DNA from: a virus
IMG/VR virus record: IMGVR_UViG_3300012922_000001
Location: 1-64,000 of that record
Length of the DNA: 64,000 nt
Reading direction: 5' to 3' (one strand)
Part shown: positions 35,969-63,328 of the stretch, in pieces
How the letters are laid out: the number at the start of each line of letters is the position of its first letter
Position numbering within the stretch: position 1 is the stretch's first letter
Program-made: the position numbers and the translations under genes
Notes under the pieces: generated by a model
Told to the model about the DNA's origin: nothing
The model's input: only the letters and a program-made list of their open reading frames with translations
The model's database searches: none

Positions 35969-36145
35969 ATGATTCAACAGGTTTCCATCCCTGCCTTCCG
36001 TTGCAACTGCGGTCACACTTGGCCCGCCAAAGGCCAGGAAGACCCCAAGCGCTGCCCTAGGTGTCAATGCAAGGCGAATGTTGTTAAAGGCCAACTCCGA
36101 GCTGGCAGGCCTGCTAAGGGCAAGACTAAGGCGACCGCTTCCTAA
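35969..36145 (+). CDS. zinc-ribbon protein (below the track size cutoff)
   Basis: My translation is MIQQVSIPAFRCNCGHTWPAKGQEDPKRCPRCQCKANVVKGQLRAGRPAKGKTKATAS, with CxC ... CxxC and a basic tail. Confidence 0.45.
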   Translation: MIQQVSIPAFRCNCGHTWPAKGQEDPKRCPRCQCKANVVKGQLRAGRPAKGKTKATAS

Positions 36146-56258: not shown

Positions 56259-56831
56259 GTGAATCTTGCGAACGCTCTCAAAATTGATGGCTGGATGAAC
56301 GATGCCGAGCTTTTATGGCTAGCTCGACAAGCATCGTGTCATGGCATGATCCTTGAAATAGGATCATGGAAAGGCCGTTCAACGAGAGCGTTCGCAGATC
56401 ACACTCCTGGCCTGGTTTACGCGGTGGATATGTGGGAATCTTCTCCTGCGGGATGGATGGATCCAGCTACTTACACAAAAGCCATATTGCAGAAGCGGCC
56501 TGAGGATTACATTTTCCAAATCTTTTGCGACAATCTCAGGTCTCACATCGAAAGTGGCAAGGTTCATCCAATTAGAAAATCCTCTATCGAGGCAGCCGAA
56601 GAGTGCATTCTGTGGTTCGATCTCATCTTCATCGACGCCGCCCACGATTATGAAAGTGTGGCACGTGATATCACTATTTGGAGTGGAAAATTACTTCCGG
56701 GTGGACTTTTATGCGGTCACGATTATTCCGAGCATTGGCCCGACGTGATGAAAGCGGTTGATGACGCGATTCCTCATCGAAAAGTGGTCCCCGGAACCTC
56801 CATCTGGTATGCAAAAATTGCGACTGTGTGA
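56259..56831 (+). CDS. class I SAM-dependent methyltransferase (Methyltransf_24-like)
   Basis: 190 aa with a GTG start. It has ILEIGSWKGRST, LIFIDAAHDYESV, and GGLLCGHDY. Confidence 0.65.
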   Translation: MNLANALKIDGWMNDAELLWLARQASCHGMILEIGSWKGRSTRAFADHTPGLVYAVDMWESSPAGWMDPATYTKAILQKRPEDYIFQIFCDNLRSHIESGKVHPIRKSSIEAAEECILWFDLIFIDAAHDYESVARDITIWSGKLLPGGLLCGHDYSEHWPDVMKAVDDAIPHRKVVPGTSIWYAKIATV

Positions 56832-56984: not shown

Positions 56985-58352
56985 ATGGCCATCGCAAGTC
57001 CCAACCCATTGCTCGAGGCAGCCGTCGAGTCCATTGAAATTGAACAATTTGCAGAGCAGATCCCGGATCTAGTGTTCCACGGGACCACCGGCTACAGCCT
57101 TTTCAAGCAGAAAGCCCACACTGTCAAAATCTCGAATGAAACCAGCGCCGGCGGCACCGCGCGGCCCCCGTTCCGCATTCCGTTCCGGGTGCAGTCCGGC
57201 TCGGCCATCACGCAGGGTACTGGTAATGGCGATTCGATCGGCCGCGGTAGCGGTTCACAATGGCAGTCGTTCGCGGTTGCTCCTGTCTACGTGTACAACG
57301 TCTGCGAAATTTCTTGGTTGTCGCAGCAGTCCACGAACGGCAAAGAGCGCGGCCTGTTTGAAGTGAAGGCCCAGGAGATGAAGAACTCGCTTGACTCTGC
57401 GATGCAGGGGCTCGAGGGGCTCGTCAACTCAGACGGCAGCGGCATGTTGGATCAGATTCCGACCACCGCGACTGTTAACAGCGGCACCGGCCCGGTAGGT
57501 CCTGGATTCTCGTCCATTGTTGGACTTAACATCGCCGCAGCTTTCAGCGATCAGCAGAATGTGACCGTTTACCCCACGGAAACCTCTGCCTCCCCCCGCG
57601 GATCCTTCACCATCAGCTACATCGATCCGGTGACCCAGACGATCTATTCGGCGACGGCTCTGCCTTCGACCGGCGGTGCTACCCAGACCGGCGATTACCT
57701 GTTCATCTACAACAGCGGAACCGCATCTGGAGCTGCTTCGGCTTCGATCCTTGGGATCAAGGCTTGGCAGATCAATGCCAATACGGGAACCATTGGCGGC
57801 TTGAATCGCGCCAGTTTCCCCGGCCGCATCTCAACCCCGACCATCAACCTTGGCGCCTCAGTCTCCGCCGGCCTCTCGCCGCGTGCGCTGACGCTCCTCG
57901 GCCGCGCCCTCGGCCCCGACGCTCCAGCCATCAAGTCGATGATTTGGTACACCGGATCCGACCAGGGCTACGCCATGGCCAACCTTCAGTACAACGTCAA
58001 CTTGGAGATTCGCTCCAGGGTTACTGGCGACAAAACCGAAGACATGGCCTACAAACTCTTCCAAGACACGTTCGGCGGACGCCCGCTGCACATCTCTTGG
58101 ACGGCTACCCCCGGCCGCATCGACGGACTCGTCATGGACAACTGGTACCTCGGCGAACTCGAGCCGCTGGAGCTTTACGATTTCGGTGGAGGGGCTGTCG
58201 TCATGCCTGTACCTGACATACCTGTAAGTCCTACAGGTCAGAATACTTACTTAAGCAGCCACATGTTCAGCTACGTCTGTAGCTGGAACTTAATAAATGC
58301 TGCCCCCAGAAATTCTTTGTACGTCTCAAATTGCACGCAGCCAGTTATCTGA
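56985..58352 (+). CDS. major capsid protein candidate
   Basis: 455 aa in the position after portal and scaffold. It is followed by the clearest intrinsic terminator in the window. Confidence 0.6.
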   Translation: MAIASPNPLLEAAVESIEIEQFAEQIPDLVFHGTTGYSLFKQKAHTVKISNETSAGGTARPPFRIPFRVQSGSAITQGTGNGDSIGRGSGSQWQSFAVAPVYVYNVCEISWLSQQSTNGKERGLFEVKAQEMKNSLDSAMQGLEGLVNSDGSGMLDQIPTTATVNSGTGPVGPGFSSIVGLNIAAAFSDQQNVTVYPTETSASPRGSFTISYIDPVTQTIYSATALPSTGGATQTGDYLFIYNSGTASGAASASILGIKAWQINANTGTIGGLNRASFPGRISTPTINLGASVSAGLSPRALTLLGRALGPDAPAIKSMIWYTGSDQGYAMANLQYNVNLEIRSRVTGDKTEDMAYKLFQDTFGGRPLHISWTATPGRIDGLVMDNWYLGELEPLELYDFGGGAVVMPVPDIPVSPTGQNTYLSSHMFSYVCSWNLINAAPRNSLYVSNCTQPVI

Positions 58353-58374
58353 TTCCAAAAGAGTTACTGGTTTT

Positions 58375-58409
58375 AAGGCCGGAGCAAATAGCTTCGGCCT
58401 TAATTTTTT
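58375..58409 (+). terminator. rho-independent terminator
   Basis: AAGGCCG-gagcaaatagctt-CGGCCTT followed by AATTTTTT. Confidence 0.7.
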
Positions 58410-58422
58410 GCAATAATAAGTA

Positions 58423-58450
58423 TTGACACATATGAAATCATAGATATATA
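58423..58450 (+). promoter_or_regulatory. promoter candidate for the inserted endonuclease gene
   Basis: TTGACA-N16-TATATA in an AT-rich spacer. Confidence 0.4.
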
Positions 58451-58469
58451 GTTCGTAGTGGAGGCGTTG

Positions 58470-59294
58470 ATGCCATTCACTACTGGGAATGTATTGGGAA
58501 AACACAATAACCATAACAAGGGTCACGAATGCTATAACCGTGAGCAGTTGAAGAATTCTAAGTGGATGCAAAAAGATGGAATCACGAGACGGATACCATC
58601 GGAGGAAGTTGAGCAGTCTCTTATTGCTGGCTGGATTATGGGACGCCCAGCGCCATCGGCATTAACACGCGAAAAGCAATCAGAATCTGGCAAGCGAGCC
58701 GCCAATCCTGGGCATTGGAAAGTGGGCCAAGTCGGATGGAATTTGGGTATGAAAATGTCAGATTCCGTTCGTCTAAGCATCTCTGCACGCCAGCTTTCAA
58801 AACATGGCGTAACCCGCGAACAGATTGAAGAAGCTTGGGCTAATGATAAGCGGTGGTGTTCGGAGCATCTCATATTTGAGCCGACCGAGAATTTCGCGGT
58901 TCTGCAAGGCGATAAGCAGTCAACTCGCTGTAAGATGAGCCACAAGAAGCACAGTCCATGGTTCAGAGAAAAACTGGAAAGTCAGCATGGCGTATGCGCT
59001 TTATGTGACGGGCAGTCTGTTAACGACAGGGCTCTTTGTGTAGACCACAGCCACGATTGTCCTAATCCAAAACATACCCGCAAGAATGCTCCGCTTTTGG
59101 GATGTGAATGCAGCCGGGGACTACTCTGCCATCACTGCAATATCAGGATTGAGGAAGTCGAGACGTTCATGTCTCAGGGATCAGGGTTTACAGCCAATCC
59201 TGGCACTTGGCTGGAGAAGGCTCTGCTCTACCTCGCCAGCTACCCCTTGACATCCGTGCTAGATTCTAAACAGGAGTCTCAAGATGCCCGATGA
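58470..59294 (+). CDS. endonuclease VII-type homing endonuclease with NUMOD-like N-terminal repeats
   Basis: 274 aa from the ATG at 58470 (SD GGAGG at 58460-58464). It contains CALCDG ... LCVDHSHDC ... GLLCHHCNIRI. Confidence 0.75.
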   Translation: MPFTTGNVLGKHNNHNKGHECYNREQLKNSKWMQKDGITRRIPSEEVEQSLIAGWIMGRPAPSALTREKQSESGKRAANPGHWKVGQVGWNLGMKMSDSVRLSISARQLSKHGVTREQIEEAWANDKRWCSEHLIFEPTENFAVLQGDKQSTRCKMSHKKHSPWFREKLESQHGVCALCDGQSVNDRALCVDHSHDCPNPKHTRKNAPLLGCECSRGLLCHHCNIRIEEVETFMSQGSGFTANPGTWLEKALLYLASYPLTSVLDSKQESQDAR

Positions 59295-59736
59295 GGTAGA
59301 AGTAACGGACCTGCGTCCGTCGAAAGAAGTCAAGGATTTTCACCCCTTCAAGCCCATATTAGATCGCCTTCTTCTGCGCCGATTGGCGGCAAAAGAGGAT
59401 GCCAGTGGATTCGAGATCCCCTCAAAATTCAGAGAGCCGGAAGCGCGCGGTGAGGTTATGACTGTCGGCGACGGGGTGACTCTGGGCGGGGCCTGGCACG
59501 CGATGACGGAGTTCGTGAACGTCGGCGACCACGTGCTGTTTGGCGAGCACACGGTGGAAAAGATCATCATCGACGGGGAAGAGTTCGATATCGCTCGACT
59601 CCAAGACATCCGCGGCGTGCGGCGGCTGAAGCGACCCTGTAATCATCAGTGGGTGGAGACGCAGAAAGTCGGTAGCATAGTATTCAGAGTCTGCCTGAAT
59701 TGCAACGAACGAGGGGTGGACGAATCAAATGTCTAA
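59284..59736 (+). CDS. groS: GroES (Cpn10) co-chaperonin with C-terminal zinc-ribbon-like extension
   Basis: 150 aa. FKPILDRLLLRR ... ASGFEIP ... ARGEVMTVGDG ... VGDHVLFG ... IDGEEFDIARLQDIRGV aligns with the GroES pattern. An extra tail carries C-x16-C-x2-C (CNHQWVETQKVGSIVFRVCLNC). Confidence 0.8.
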   Translation: MPDEVEVTDLRPSKEVKDFHPFKPILDRLLLRRLAAKEDASGFEIPSKFREPEARGEVMTVGDGVTLGGAWHAMTEFVNVGDHVLFGEHTVEKIIIDGEEFDIARLQDIRGVRRLKRPCNHQWVETQKVGSIVFRVCLNCNERGVDESNV

Positions 59737-61339
59737 GTCCATCGTCTCCGGCGCCGAAGCGCGCCTCAAGCTACTCGCTGGTATCAACCTGATCGCGGAC
59801 GCCGTGAAAGTCACCCTCGGGCCCTCCGGCCGCAACTGCGTCTACGAACGTGCCCAGACGAACCTGCCGGTGTCGACGCGCGACGGCGTGACAGTAGCGG
59901 AGCAGATTGAAGCACAAGATCCACACGAAAACATGGGTGTAAATCTCATCAAAGGAGTGGCGCGTGAAGCGGTGGATGCAAGCGGTGACGGAACGACTAC
60001 GGCGACTCTTATGGCGCAAGCAATCTTCGCAGAAGGCGTCAAGCAAATCACGGCTGGAGCAAATCCAGTATCTCTCAAGCGGGGCATCGAGAAGGCGACG
60101 GCCTATTGCCTGGTTCGACTGAAAGAGCAGGCGATACCGGTATCCGGGGAGATGATCCGGCAGGTGGCGACGATCTCGGCGAACAACGATGAGTTTCTGG
60201 GTGGGTTGATTGCCAAGGCGATGGAGAAGGCTGGCGACGACGGCGTGGTGACGGTGGAGATCAGCCGGAAGCCGGATTCCTACCTCGAGATCGTTGACGG
60301 GCTCCAGTTTGCCGGAGGGTTCCTGTCGCCATACTTCGTGAATGAGCCGGAGCGCAACGAGTGCGTGCTCGAGGATGTGGCAATCTTCTTGTATGAGTCG
60401 AAACTGGCCAGTATTCGCGATATGCTGCCCCACATTCAAGAGATTGCGAAGCAGGGAAAGTCGCTGCTCGTGCTGGCGGAGGACGTCACAGACGAGGCAC
60501 TGGCGGTGCTGGCGGTCAATTGTCAGAAGGGTCTGCTCAAGGCGTGCGCGGTGAAGCATCCGGGAAGTCTAGACCACCTGCAGGATATTGCCGCCATGAC
60601 CGGCGCCGTGGTCGCGACGGAGCTTTCTGGGATGAAGCCGAAGGATATCACATTGCAGCACCTCGGGCACGCTAAGAAGGTGATTGTGAAATCGCAGTCG
60701 ACGACGATTATTGCCGACCCGGGGAAAAATGAGGCCCTGGCGCGGCGGCTGAAGGAATTGCGGACTCAGGTATCGTCTGCGACCGACGAAACGCAGCGGT
60801 TGCGGCTACAGGGACGTCTGGCGCGGCTCTCTGGCGGCGTGGCTGTGATCAAGATCGGTGCGGCGACCGAACTCGAGATGAACGAAAAGAAGGACCGGCT
60901 GGACGACGCCATCCATGCCACACGATGCGCGAAGGCGGAAGGCGTTGTCGTAGGCGGTGGAATCGCGTTGCTACAATGTCACATGATCCCAACGCCTGAC
61001 TGGAAGGATGATGACGAGCGAGCTGGTGCACAAATCGTTTCCAAGGCCTGTTATGCGCCATTGCGGACCCTTGCAGAGAATGGCGGGGAATCAGCAGATT
61101 ATATCGTCAAGCAGGTACTCTCCGGCAACCCTCATCGTGCAACTTCGATAGACATGATGCATAAAGACAACAGTCGCCATTGGGGCTGGAACGCTCGCAC
61201 CCGCACCTTCGAAGATTTGGTCGCCGCGGGCGTGCTTGATCCCTTGCGCGTTGTCCGCGTAGCCCTGGAGAGCGCGGCCAGCGTGGCGGGACTTGCTTTA
61301 ATCACGGCGACATTGGTCGCCAATGAAAGGATGAAATGA
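59729..61339 (+). CDS. groL: GroEL (Cpn60) chaperonin
   Basis: 536 aa and collinear with bacterial GroEL. Matching blocks include ADAVKVTLGPSGRN, ASGDGTTTATLMAQAI, GGFLSPYF, LSGGVAVIKIGAATELEMNEKKDRLDDAIHATR, and VLDPLRV. It lacks the C-terminal GGM repeats. Confidence 0.95.
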   Translation: MSKSIVSGAEARLKLLAGINLIADAVKVTLGPSGRNCVYERAQTNLPVSTRDGVTVAEQIEAQDPHENMGVNLIKGVAREAVDASGDGTTTATLMAQAIFAEGVKQITAGANPVSLKRGIEKATAYCLVRLKEQAIPVSGEMIRQVATISANNDEFLGGLIAKAMEKAGDDGVVTVEISRKPDSYLEIVDGLQFAGGFLSPYFVNEPERNECVLEDVAIFLYESKLASIRDMLPHIQEIAKQGKSLLVLAEDVTDEALAVLAVNCQKGLLKACAVKHPGSLDHLQDIAAMTGAVVATELSGMKPKDITLQHLGHAKKVIVKSQSTTIIADPGKNEALARRLKELRTQVSSATDETQRLRLQGRLARLSGGVAVIKIGAATELEMNEKKDRLDDAIHATRCAKAEGVVVGGGIALLQCHMIPTPDWKDDDERAGAQIVSKACYAPLRTLAENGGESADYIVKQVLSGNPHRATSIDMMHKDNSRHWGWNARTRTFEDLVAAGVLDPLRVVRVALESAASVAGLALITATLVANERMK

Positions 61340-61689
61340 TTCAGCCGATCGATGTCTACAATGCATTGAGGACGCAGCCACTACTCGACTATGTTGAAAC
61401 TGCTGTTGATTTCAGTGAAGATTTGAAAAGTATCGTGGTCGATGGTACCGTCGATTGCTGGGAAATCGCCAGATTCCTTAACGAGAAGGCAGCCATGAAC
61501 TCCTTGGCGTTCGGTCACCTTCCTCCCATCGGTTGCAATTTCATCCCAGTAATGCCGGGTCATCCAAAAGCTACTGGAACCTGCGTATGCGACCTTGGAT
61601 GCGGTCACAATGCGACCGAATATCAGTTTTACCGGAACGCCAAAAATATCAAACGCCCCAGTCTGGGAGAAGGACTTCCGATTCTGTGA
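61336..61689 (+). CDS. hypothetical protein
   Basis: Track ORF of 117 aa, with an ATGA overlap with groL. Confidence 0.45.
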   Translation: MIQPIDVYNALRTQPLLDYVETAVDFSEDLKSIVVDGTVDCWEIARFLNEKAAMNSLAFGHLPPIGCNFIPVMPGHPKATGTCVCDLGCGHNATEYQFYRNAKNIKRPSLGEGLPIL

Positions 61690-62399
61690 CATGGCGCATC
61701 GTAGGGCCAGAGCGCAATATGCCTCCGGAAGCCTTTCAAGAAAGGCTTACTGATCTCGGGGGGATAAATAAATTTGACGAACCAATTTTCAGACTGTGGT
61801 GGGGGCCTTACGCCTATGGCGATGGATCGTTTACCGCAGGGGGAGCATGGAGCGTCGATGAGGCTGCATACACCGGATATCGTAAAGTTCTAAGGGCGAG
61901 TGGTTCACCATGCTTTTGTCTTGGCATGTGGCATGACGCTCTTGAATATGGAACTCCAGAGCGATATTACGTGGAAAATTACGATGATTCCACTGGACTG
62001 TCCGTCTTGGGAGAGTATCCCTATTCGGGTAGGGTCGAACTCATGTACGAATTGCGCTGGCATGAAAAAATCGGCGACCGCATGGAGTTCCACACGATGC
62101 CGCTGACGTCCTGGGTCTTCGACATGGTGGTGCCAATCATCATGAAGGCCAAGGAAGTCTCCGCCGAGAAGCGTATCGCGGCGTTCTTGGATGCACGCAA
62201 GAAGGATGAGGACGAAAAGACGGTACAAATCGAACGCCATTTGCGTGCGAATGCGCTGCCATTCACGGATACCGTCTCCTACACCCGGCAGGGTATCCGG
62301 TCGACCGTGATTGACGCCAAAATGCGTACCATGAATGCCTACTGGAACGAGATGTCGAACGCTGCGCGCTCGCTGCGGCCGGGACTCCAAACCCGGTAG
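61686..62399 (+). CDS. hypothetical virion-module protein
   Basis: 237 aa from the GTG at 61686 (GTGA overlap). The longer track ORF overlaps the upstream gene out of frame. Confidence 0.45.
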   Translation: MTWRIVGPERNMPPEAFQERLTDLGGINKFDEPIFRLWWGPYAYGDGSFTAGGAWSVDEAAYTGYRKVLRASGSPCFCLGMWHDALEYGTPERYYVENYDDSTGLSVLGEYPYSGRVELMYELRWHEKIGDRMEFHTMPLTSWVFDMVVPIIMKAKEVSAEKRIAAFLDARKKDEDEKTVQIERHLRANALPFTDTVSYTRQGIRSTVIDAKMRTMNAYWNEMSNAARSLRPGLQTR

Positions 62400-62449: not shown

Positions 62450-63328
62450 ATGTCCTTGATGGAAGTGAAGGAAGTTCACCCAGTGTCAACCTCGGCTCTG
62501 GGCGGGAATGTCCGCTATACCGGAGTCGCGTGGCAGCCAACCTACATCCCTGAGTATCACGTTTATATCTTCAACGTCTCCCAGCGCAGCTTTGCGAAAG
62601 TCGGGCCTTGGGCGAACACGTCCATTCCCGGAGTGGTCGACGACGATCCGGTCCTTCCTGGGATGAAGGCGAACGAAAAGTACCACTTCGTCGCGTCTTA
62701 TCCACAGCCCATGCTGATGCCGAAACTCAGCGATCAGTCTTCTGAGATGGATGCTGTCCGCGTCGACGCCCGGCGTTATGTTATGGACATCATCAATCCT
62801 GACAACGCCACGTTGAACATGGATACGGTAGTCCCCGCCGAGCATCGGCTGTCGATTAACAACGATCTGTCCATCAAAGGCGTCTTCTACTCGCTGAACA
62901 ATCCGCCGACGCAGCACGAAGTGCGCTCCGCGATCGACCGCATGGAGAAGTACTACCGCGCACTACTTGAGAAGGCCCGCACGCTTGAGTTGACGGATAA
63001 GGCAAAGCTCTCAGAGGAACTTGCATCGAATCCTGACTTCGCCTATGCCGCCGAGTACTTCGGCGTCGAGATGTCGTGGAACAAACGGCAATCGCGGCCG
63101 GAGCAGTGCGCAAACTGCGGTGAGTCCAAGCCGTTCGGCGCCAAGTTTCACGTCAACAAAGAACTCGGGTTCGTCTGTGTCGAGCCGACCGCAGAAGGTT
63201 GGAAAGCGGCGTGTATGGCTGGCGTCAAGCGCAGGGAGGATGTTCCCCCGGGCCTTGGTCTGGAATGGTGGAAGAAGGACAAGGGTATGCCGAAGCCTGA
63301 AGAACCAGACGGCGAGTCGACACAATAA
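62450..63328 (+). CDS. hypothetical virion-module protein
   Basis: 292 aa with SD context ATAGGAGTCTC upstream. A C-terminal CANC ... C motif is present. Confidence 0.5.
   Translation: MSLMEVKEVHPVSTSALGGNVRYTGVAWQPTYIPEYHVYIFNVSQRSFAKVGPWANTSIPGVVDDDPVLPGMKANEKYHFVASYPQPMLMPKLSDQSSEMDAVRVDARRYVMDIINPDNATLNMDTVVPAEHRLSINNDLSIKGVFYSLNNPPTQHEVRSAIDRMEKYYRALLEKARTLELTDKAKLSEELASNPDFAYAAEYFGVEMSWNKRQSRPEQCANCGESKPFGAKFHVNKELGFVCVEPTAEGWKAACMAGVKRREDVPPGLGLEWWKKDKGMPKPEEPDGESTQ

Follow-up and report, generated by a model that had tools for sequence, protein, structure and literature searches.

The chaperonin gene pair

We analyzed a window of 64,000 nucleotides of viral DNA (positions 1 to 64,000 of the IMG/VR record IMGVR_UViG_3300012922_000001), in which genes for a GroES-like co-chaperonin (Cpn10) and a GroEL-like group I chaperonin (Cpn60) adjoin each other in the head-gene region. 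All window coordinates refer to the plus strand. The window is phage-like and encodes the large subunit of a terminase (PHROG 979), DnaB, glycosyltransferases, and many large unannotated open reading frames (ORFs). The Cpn10 gene (59284..59736; 150 aa, 17.0 kDa) follows a Shine–Dalgarno-like AGGAG (59272..59276), read from the sequence 7 nt upstream of the ATG, and the Cpn60 gene (59729..61339) encodes 536 aa (57.2 kDa). The 150-aa protein matched the Pfam family Cpn10 (PF00166) over residues 22–112 with 42.8 bits (cut-off 21.1), while the 536-aa protein matched Cpn60_TCP1 (PF00118) over residues 22–526 with 215.8 bits (cut-off 34.3). The PHROG labels were co-chaperonin GroES and chaperonin groEL (PHROG 5725, E = 8e-129), respectively. 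These family assignments are strong, backed by synteny, and far above chance. They agree with an original prediction, made from the letters of the window, of a full-length group I chaperonin with conserved ATP-binding blocks, as did all residues checked.

The same prediction had placed a Cpn10 homologue in front of Cpn60 with a start/stop overlap. The overlap indeed consists of 8 nt, ATGTCTAA (59729..59736), in which the Cpn60 start and the Cpn10 stop are read directly from the sequence. The junction NTGNCTAA was found also in the related loci L001, L002, L003, and L133, and the 8-nt overlap also in L007–L010, L216, and L217. The retention of this arrangement across the clade supports translational coupling of the two genes. 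The locus L132 has an identical ATGTCTAA junction, but there the next gene is an unrelated 128-aa ORF. Cpn10 and Cpn60 occurred together in every examined member of a clade with contigs of ~57–73 kb. Thus, the head-module position, the coupled genes, and the retention of both in related viral contigs support the view, already put forward in the original prediction, that the pair is phage-encoded and cognate.

Sequence features of Cpn60

Cpn60 aligned with E. coli GroEL at 48% identity. The ATP-site and catalytic residues were all the same as in E. coli (T30–P33, D52, D87–T91, D398, G415/G416, N479/A480, and D495). On the hydrophobic surface formed by the apical helices H and I, 6 of 9 positions were identical (S201, Y203, F204, L234, L259, and V264); among the substitutions, Y199F and L237I are conservative, and V263A introduces a smaller residue. 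Of the positions that can hint at back-to-back heptameric rings with ATP-driven cooperativity, K105, A109, and R452 were retained.

Two deviations that had been called from the sequence were found as described. The protein ends with …LVANERMK and lacks the Gly-Gly-Met tail, (GGM)4M, which GroELs typically but not universally have; the Cpn60 proteins of L002 and L003 lack it as well. Furthermore, four residues corresponding to E. coli R285–M288 are missing at AVKHPGSLDH (AVKHPGSLDH----LQDIA; the KHPGSLDH segment is encoded at 60554..60577). L002 and L003 have the same deletion, which is thus a trait of the clade. The alignment with E. coli GroEL also revealed a 17-residue insertion in the equatorial domain (residues 468–484, PHRATSIDMMHKDNSRH; 61130..61180), the length and sequence of which differ among L002 and L003.

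Core and N-terminal extension of Cpn10

The AlphaFold2 (AF2) monomer model of Cpn10 had a mean predicted local distance difference test (pLDDT) score of 76, with values of 80–90 in the core. The core domain, delimited by the Pfam coordinates (residues 22–112; 59347..59619), comprises the mobile loop and the roof hairpin. Strands were predicted for residues 64–67 and 70–73, at the position of the roof hairpin and in a region that aligns with E. coli GroES. Residues 37–46, which make up the mobile loop, had low pLDDT, as expected of a flexible loop. In a Foldseek search with the model, the top ~30 matches were almost all Hsp10/GroES chains (4pj1_U, E = 4.9e-6; 1aon_O), human mitochondrial Hsp10 included, and T4 gp31 (1g31_A) gave a much weaker match (E = 4.2e-3). 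The mobile-loop motif G42-F43-E44-I45 (59407..59418) aligns with G24-I25-V26-L27 of E. coli GroES. The loop is 3 residues shorter than that of E. coli, and the middle residue of its tripeptide is charged (FEI vs. IVL). In the section of Marine et al. that covers this tripeptide, 23% of the viral co-chaperonins are described as having a polar or charged residue in it (PMC5649160).

The core is preceded by an acidic extension of residues 1–21 (59284..59346) that carries the clade-conserved motif V-x-D-x-R-P-[SD]-[KR]. The motif recurs in the Cpn10 matches P0002–P0007, P0013–P0016, and P0022 and in L007–L010. It also lies within the longer N-terminal regions of the Cpn10-domain proteins of L132 and L134, where ~115 aa still hold V-x-D-R-R-P. 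Across many members a fuller form, h-x-V-x-D-x-R-P-[SD]-[KR]…(E/K)-Y-x-P-F-x-P-I-L-D-R, can be discerned. The N-terminal extension is, at the level of sequence, a clade-wide feature, and it might make Cpn10 specific for the phage Cpn60 or attach to a partner. Of the two Cpn10 extensions proposed originally, the C-terminal one of ~40 aa proved accurate (38 aa), whereas the N-terminal one, given as 18 aa, comprises about 21 aa.

The C-terminal Cys/His tail of Cpn10

According to the alignment, the C-terminal tail spans residues 113–150 (59620..59733). It is basic, with an isoelectric point of 9.2, whereas the complete Cpn10 is acidic. At the DNA level, the tail is inserted in frame where the core ends (…RGVRRL-K/V-R), ahead of the conserved overlap. 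All residues of the CNHQW...CLNC pattern noticed earlier are present, namely C119, H121, W123, C137, and C140. Homologous tails and the AF2 model point to a putative zinc-binding module, C119-N-H121-Q-W123 … C137-L-N-C140 (59638..59703), whose four Cys/His ligands are set as two short knuckles, C119-x-H121 … C137-x-x-C140. The C-x-H-x-W…C-x-x-C module was also found in P0003/L001 and P0281/L216, and, without the Trp, in the tandem Cpn10 P0126. In an alignment of four tails, the C, H, C, and C positions were the sole invariant columns. The AF2 monomer model, built on a 10-sequence alignment, contains β-strands at residues 123–129, 132–137, and 143–147 with pLDDT of about 72–86. The tail is therefore probably a small basic β-module stabilized by zinc, the binding of which we infer from the ligand pattern.

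The C-termini that could be measured in the clade mostly end at most 13 residues past the Cpn10 core. A minority carries other appendages: a four-Cys tail of another type in P0319 and a His/Cys-rich one in L007, while in P0015 the CxH…CxxC module sits N-terminally. The tail of L001 had a sub-threshold Pfam match to Ribosomal_L32p (E = 0.005), and the other Cpn10 appendages gave no significant Pfam match. When tail and appendages were scanned against PHROG, the only hit was a borderline one of the tail (PHROG 27296, see below). In P0017, P0282, P0283 (L217, 2099–2743), and P0290, the Cys/His tail is replaced by a common C-terminal domain of ~100 aa ('AGVLDRI…VGQI.GI.S…RG…LP.GT..GDLL'), for which no PHROG match was obtained. 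Further extended Cpn10 matches, among them P0053, P0087, P0138, and P0112, were rejected as tails; they resemble ordinary cellular GroES followed by out-of-frame junk. A small stand-alone ORF of the window at ~35970–36140 (MIQQVSIPAFRCNCGHTWPAKGQEDPKRCPRCQ…) has a basic C-terminus and a CxHxW…CxxC motif like that of the Cpn10 tail.

The three tailed loci (window, L001, and L216) have the most similar GroEL N-terminal regions, with 82–91% identity. The Cpn10 core of the window is 85% identical to that of the tail-less L002 and only 68% identical to that of L001. The locus is thus a mosaic: L001 and the window share 91% identity in Cpn60 and 68% in the Cpn10 core, so that the two genes group in conflicting ways, which implies recombination between them. 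Since the tail follows the adjacent 5' end of the Cpn60 gene rather than the Cpn10 core, the sequences fit a single gain of the tail in the sub-lineage of the window, L001, and L216, followed by recombination within the locus. Because close relatives do without it, the tail would be accessory and dispensable for the basic chaperonin cycle. We rejected the idea that it travels with the endonuclease gene upstream (see below); both are present in L001, but in L133 and L217 the endonuclease occurs with no CHCC tail.

Position in the head module and conservation among relatives

Upstream of the pair, the genes are arranged in the order 887-aa portal-like ORF, 442-aa scaffold-like ORF, 145-aa ORF, methyltransferase, 455-aa protein, and 278-aa endonuclease. 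The gene of the 455-aa protein (56985..58352; 48 kDa) comes after those of the terminase, the portal-like ORF, and the scaffold-like ORF. Its product had more than 600 homologues, none of them named, and no match in Pfam, PHROG, a PDB sequence-profile search, or GenBank phages. The portal-like ORF likewise had no match among GenBank phages. When the AF2 model of the 455-aa protein was searched with Foldseek, encapsulins or capsid proteins of the HK97 type made up nearly all of the best 50 PDB matches, headed by 7f38_I from cyanophage A-1(L) (E = 1.7e-4). Because these weak matches agree with each other, and in view of the gene order, the protein is probably the major capsid protein with an HK97 fold.

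Between the capsid gene and Cpn10 lies a gene (58458..59294) for a 278-aa protein that resembles Endonuclease VII. It matched Endonuclease_7 (PF02945) with 34.3 bits (cut-off 23.6; E = 2.3e-8) and the PHROG endonuclease VII, and its 3' end overlaps the Cpn10 start by 11 nt. Homologues with 29–37% identity were found in the capsid-to-Cpn10 gap of L001, L007, L009, and L010. In total, an Endonuclease_7 gene is present in the window, L001, L007, L009, L010, L133, and L217, and absent from L003 and L005. In the latter two, Cpn10 directly follows the capsid gene, indicating that the endonuclease gene is an insert, apparently of the free-standing homing-endonuclease type. Thus, the view that the pair was placed right after the capsid gene and separated from it by an inserted endonuclease held up.

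A consensus scan identified a strong terminator-like hairpin with a 13-bp stem and a T-run right after the capsid gene (58373..58403), followed by a promoter-like site of the sigma-70 type, TTGACA-18-TATAGT, with 11/12 matches (58423..58452). The total of terminator-like sites in the region was not above the shuffled expectation. As read from the sequence, the two sites suggest attenuation after the capsid gene and a promoter of their own for the endonuclease and chaperonin genes, which may be transcribed separately as one unit within the head module. The 'structural operon' of the original prediction is therefore sound as regards membership in the same head module, while membership in the same operon as the capsid gene is uncertain.

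The order portal, scaffold, capsid (67–81% identical), variable insert, Cpn10, Cpn60, and two further head-module genes, d2 and d3, was conserved in L003, L007–L010, L133, L135, L217, and the P0168 contig. The longer, complete-looking contigs with close capsid homologues were mostly 57–73 kb in size. On two contigs of ~100 kb with a capsid identity of ~60%, L132 (13048–13827) and L134 (11993–12736), a Cpn10-domain protein of 247–259 aa is encoded at the same position. Lid-only and lid-plus-cage states are thus natural variants within one phage family. A scan of IMG/VR with a single GroEL sequence revealed no relative; the clade alignment is needed as the query.

Divergence from cellular chaperonins and frequency of viral pairs

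Cellular genomes and metagenome contigs were scanned for GroEL with pattern-seeded searches, and the following figures hold among the matches listed. The closest cellular GroELs, from 185,579 species genomes, were 43–47% identical to Cpn60 of the window and belonged to many phyla, in agreement with the 48% identity to E. coli GroEL. GroELs on metagenome contigs were 43–50% identical, except that of the clade member L136 (63%). Other phage GroELs reached at most 46% identity.

Among GenBank phages, 262 records of diverse kinds contained a GroEL homologue, at varied genomic positions. A Cpn10 gene lay directly upstream in 16 of ~32 evaluable IMG/VR GroEL loci. According to the parts of Marine et al. 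2017 that deal with viral operons, 40% of the viral GroEL contigs also carry a co-chaperonin gene, which in about half of these cases stands in the order GroES>GroEL (PMC5649160). By these two frequencies, the pair is less uncommon than the original prediction assumed.

Comparison with known chaperonin systems

The pair can be placed among the viral GroES>GroEL operons already known, as a canonical group I system. It shares with the virioplankton operons in the relevant passages of Marine et al. (PMC5649160) a phage group I chaperonin with its own co-chaperonin in canonical order, distinct from cellular GroEL, and a mobile-loop tripeptide that departs from the canonical one by a polar or charged residue. 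The pair described here differs from those operons by its location in the head module beside the capsid gene and by a Cpn10 with an N-terminal extension and a CHCC tail; the passages concerned describe no Cpn10 tail, and the word 'extension' is absent from them. What is new is the lineage, which has no GenBank phage representative for its capsid or portal proteins, the fixed place of the Cpn10(-Cpn60) module in the head module, and the Cpn10 with a conserved N-terminal extension and a CHCC tail.

With E. coli GroES/GroEL (1AON), the system has in common the 48% identical GroEL with its ATP site and most H/I residues, the Cpn10 fold with roof hairpin and mobile loop, and the ES-EL order. It differs in the missing GGM tail, the 4-residue apical deletion, the 17-residue equatorial insertion, the changes at R197, 461, 463, and 464, and the Cpn10 appendages. 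Furthermore, the genes overlap, whereas a spacer separates groES and groEL in E. coli.

The gp31 protein (structure 1G31) has no roof hairpin and a longer mobile loop. We therefore rejected a lid of the gp31 type, as Cpn10 of the window has a roof hairpin, a mobile loop 3 residues shorter than that of E. coli, a Cpn60 of its own, and only a weak match to 1g31_A. T4 gp31 and RB49 CocO are introduced in Marine et al. as phage co-chaperonins that are needed to fold the capsid protein (PMC5649160). Like Cpn10, they are phage-encoded lids, theirs being dedicated to a large HK97-type capsid protein, but they use the host GroEL, while the window phage has its own Cpn60. Pseudomonas phage EL gp146, OBP, and AR9 also provide phage-encoded proteins of the Cpn60 family. 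These work without a co-chaperonin, whereas the Cpn60 of the window is a canonical GroEL with an adjoining, translationally coupled Cpn10; assignment to the co-chaperonin-independent class was rejected on these grounds.

A metal-binding GroES extension, described originally as unfamiliar, has a precedent of a different sequence type. In HspA, a GroES of H. pylori, the C-terminus is extended by ~28–38 aa that contain Cys and His and bind metal (PMC5116745). According to small-angle X-ray scattering, these domains form seven radial extrusions on the heptamer (PMC5116745). Domain B of HspA contains 8 His and 4 Cys with an HX4DH motif, binds nickel, and forms disulfides (PMC5116745). The tail of the window has a C-x-H…C-x-x-C pattern typical of one structural zinc site, predicted β-strands, and no sequence similarity to HspA. 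With 1 His and 3 Cys and no HX4DH, it was not classified as an HspA-type tail. The L007 tail (PHLEHHDCITAGCVGGDHA) is closer to HspA in look. A full-text literature search revealed no paper joining 'zinc ribbon' with co-chaperonin, Cpn10, and phage.

Proposed function and alternative explanations

Phage capsid proteins are classic obligate clients of chaperonins, and the answer of T4 is a lid protein of its own. We consider it likely that the pair is a translationally coupled Cpn10-Cpn60 folding machine with a stable place in the head-morphogenesis module of an uncultured lineage of phages. The mechanism outlined here was derived from the established GroEL/GroES cycle and the T4 gp31/gp23 precedent. 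Late transcription would start at the promoter-like site at 58423 or continue through the hairpin that follows the capsid gene, and translation of Cpn60 would be coupled to the termination of Cpn10 at the ATGTCTAA overlap. The Cpn60 rings would bind a non-native phage structural protein via the conserved hydrophobic helix H/I surface, the most likely client being the 48-kDa HK97-type capsid protein encoded just upstream. ATP would bind at the fully conserved nucleotide site, and the Cpn10 heptamer would cap the ring through the mobile loop G-F-E-I. The client would then fold in a chamber that has no GGM tails and is probably slightly larger. By analogy with HspA and with tandem Cpn20, in which the C-terminus of one domain is joined to the N-terminus of the next, both Cpn10 appendages should lie on the outer rim of the lid and not in the cavity. 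The tail would be displayed as seven copies around the lid and may act as an accessory binding element or stabilize the heptamer.

Several observations weigh against this proposal. Adjacency is the sole evidence that links the chaperonin to a capsid client, and the capsid assignment itself is of low confidence, as the AF2 model of the 455-aa protein was poor (pLDDT 48). The hairpin and the promoter-like site stand between the capsid gene and the pair. L132 and L134 lack Cpn60, and such Cpn10-only relatives raise the prospect that Cpn10 may also work with host GroEL. In Cpn60, residues involved in the double ring and allostery of E. coli GroEL are altered (E461S, S463D, V464Y, and R197G), so that its oligomeric state and cycle may differ from the textbook. 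As for the tail, most clade members lack it, its ligand set comprises only 3 Cys and 1 His, and it had no significant match to a curated zinc-ribbon family in Pfam (Zn_ribbon_TFIIS was sub-threshold with E = 0.08).

The absence of the tail from most of the clade, including L002 with its 85% identical Cpn10 core, also agrees with an explanation in which the tail is a selectively neutral leftover of a small phage zinc-ribbon ORF fused to Cpn10, with no chaperonin function. The tail had a borderline match to PHROG 27296 (E = 0.0011), a function-unassigned family whose 61-aa members are phage proteins that stand alone. A motif of similar type, CGHTW…CPRC, occurs in the stand-alone window ORF at ~36008, and the C-terminus of Cpn10 tolerates several unrelated appendages. 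Against this, the tails of the three loci have diverged nearly everywhere but at C, H, W, C, and C, while their GroEL N-terminal regions differ by 9–18%. The conservation of the ligands amid the divergence of the tail indicates purifying selection on a folded metal site, and the CxH…CxxC module also occurs in P0126 and, N-terminally, in P0015. We therefore regard a neutral origin as doubtful, though deserving of some weight.

A role of the pair in proteostasis at large or in host takeover, serving many phage proteins or the host proteome without a special link to the capsid, is unlikely. The occurrence of GroEL homologues at varied positions in the 262 GenBank phage records would suit such a role, as would the terminator-like and promoter-like sites between capsid gene and pair. 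Furthermore, in the operons covered by the pertinent passages of Marine et al., viral GroES>GroEL genes adjoin those of small heat-shock proteins and not capsid genes (PMC5649160). In the lineage of the window, by contrast, Cpn10, with or without Cpn60, is always situated between the capsid gene and d2/d3, down to a capsid identity of ~58%.

If the dedicated folding machine is extended by a role of the appendages, these could be adaptors that tether the lid to the scaffold, the portal, the nascent procapsid, or nucleic acid, given the clade-wide N-terminal extension and, in addition, seven outward-facing basic zinc-ribbon modules. We rate this extension as rather improbable. Were it true, folding of the capsid protein would be tied physically to the assembly of the capsid or to the translation of the mRNA for the capsid protein, and to our knowledge, a coupling of this kind has not been described for any chaperonin.

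Quite improbable, too, is a division of labor in which Cpn10 serves mainly the host GroEL, like T4 gp31, and the phage Cpn60 acts alone, like the phage EL chaperonin. The retention of a Cpn10-domain protein without Cpn60 in the ~100-kb contigs L132 and L134 would be in line with it, but the conserved overlap and the co-occurrence of the pair in every examined clade member of ~57–73 kb are not. Neither is Cpn60 itself, which is 48% identical to E. coli GroEL and retains the helix H/I residues for GroES binding. As far as is known, phage chaperonins that need no co-chaperonin have diverged much further from GroEL than the Cpn60 of the window. That some phage chaperonins are reported to be co-chaperonin-independent is mentioned in Marine et al. 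with reference to Kurochkina 2012 (PMC5649160).

Finally, the chance that the tail arose from a frameshift or chimera in the assembly, or that the pair is a recently captured host groESL, is negligible. The P0005 fragment is identical over a stretch of 80 residues but not beyond it, so that faulty assemblies of the locus do exist. Even so, three independent assemblies from different samples (window, L001, and L216) have the tail in frame, the best cellular GroELs among the matches listed are 43–50% identical and come from many phyla, and Cpn10 matches ordinary GroES weakly. Both origins had been named at the outset as grounds for abandoning the original prediction.

With the pair, the lineage maintains a complete, co-evolving lid-plus-cage system beside the capsid gene. 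Natural variants are at hand, with or without the Cys/His tail, with other C-terminal domains, or, in the larger relatives, with the lid only. They offer a compact natural setting for studying how cage and lid are tuned to one large client, how the specificity of lid and cage is set against that of the host, and which appendages a GroES lid tolerates. Binding of a partner by the tail or by the N-terminal extension would amount to a novel route of chaperonin recruitment; failing that, the pair adds a further example to the documented diversity of viral chaperonins.

Neighboring genes and further observations

Downstream of the pair, a 117-aa ORF (61336..61689) starts within the GroEL stop (ATGA); its presence varies among the relatives, and it had no family match. 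It is followed by the conserved gene d2 (61719..62399), with a likely start MPPEAF at 61719. Homologues of d2, 52–60% identical, directly follow GroEL in L003 and L007–L010 and the Cpn10-only gene in L132. The gene d3 (62450..63328; 292 aa) has homologues in L003, L007–L010, and L132 and gave no Pfam or PHROG match. The C-terminal segment of d3 contains Cys (CANCGESKPFGAKFHVNKELGFVCVEP), and two d3 paralogues of L132 (12222–13028 and 14958–15785) flank the Cpn10 gene. In the upstream part of the head module, a gene with a Methyltransf_24 domain (56259–56831) is located between the scaffold-like ORF and the capsid gene. No tRNAs were found, and Rfam gave no match in the window or in L003.

The capsid-to-Cpn10 gap appears as a hot spot for cargo (L007, 7031–9519; L009, 6474–9624; L010, 6564–9633; P0168 contig). 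The cargo includes diverged Endonuclease VII-like genes, a 445-aa ORF, glycosyltransferase-like ORFs of ~340 aa, and an ORF with collagen-like Gly-X-Y repeats. The P0168 contig contains three Endonuclease_7 genes within 20 kb. In L003 (GCA_017886315.1, JAFMOA010003203.1), the capsid homologue is broken after ~codon 20 by an insert of ~200 nt (~505–700), and the frame resumes at 'FSEKIPDIVYHGTT'. No Rfam family was assigned to this insert even at E <= 1. Its folding stability exceeded that of shuffled controls (z = -3.3), and it may be a small self-splicing intron.

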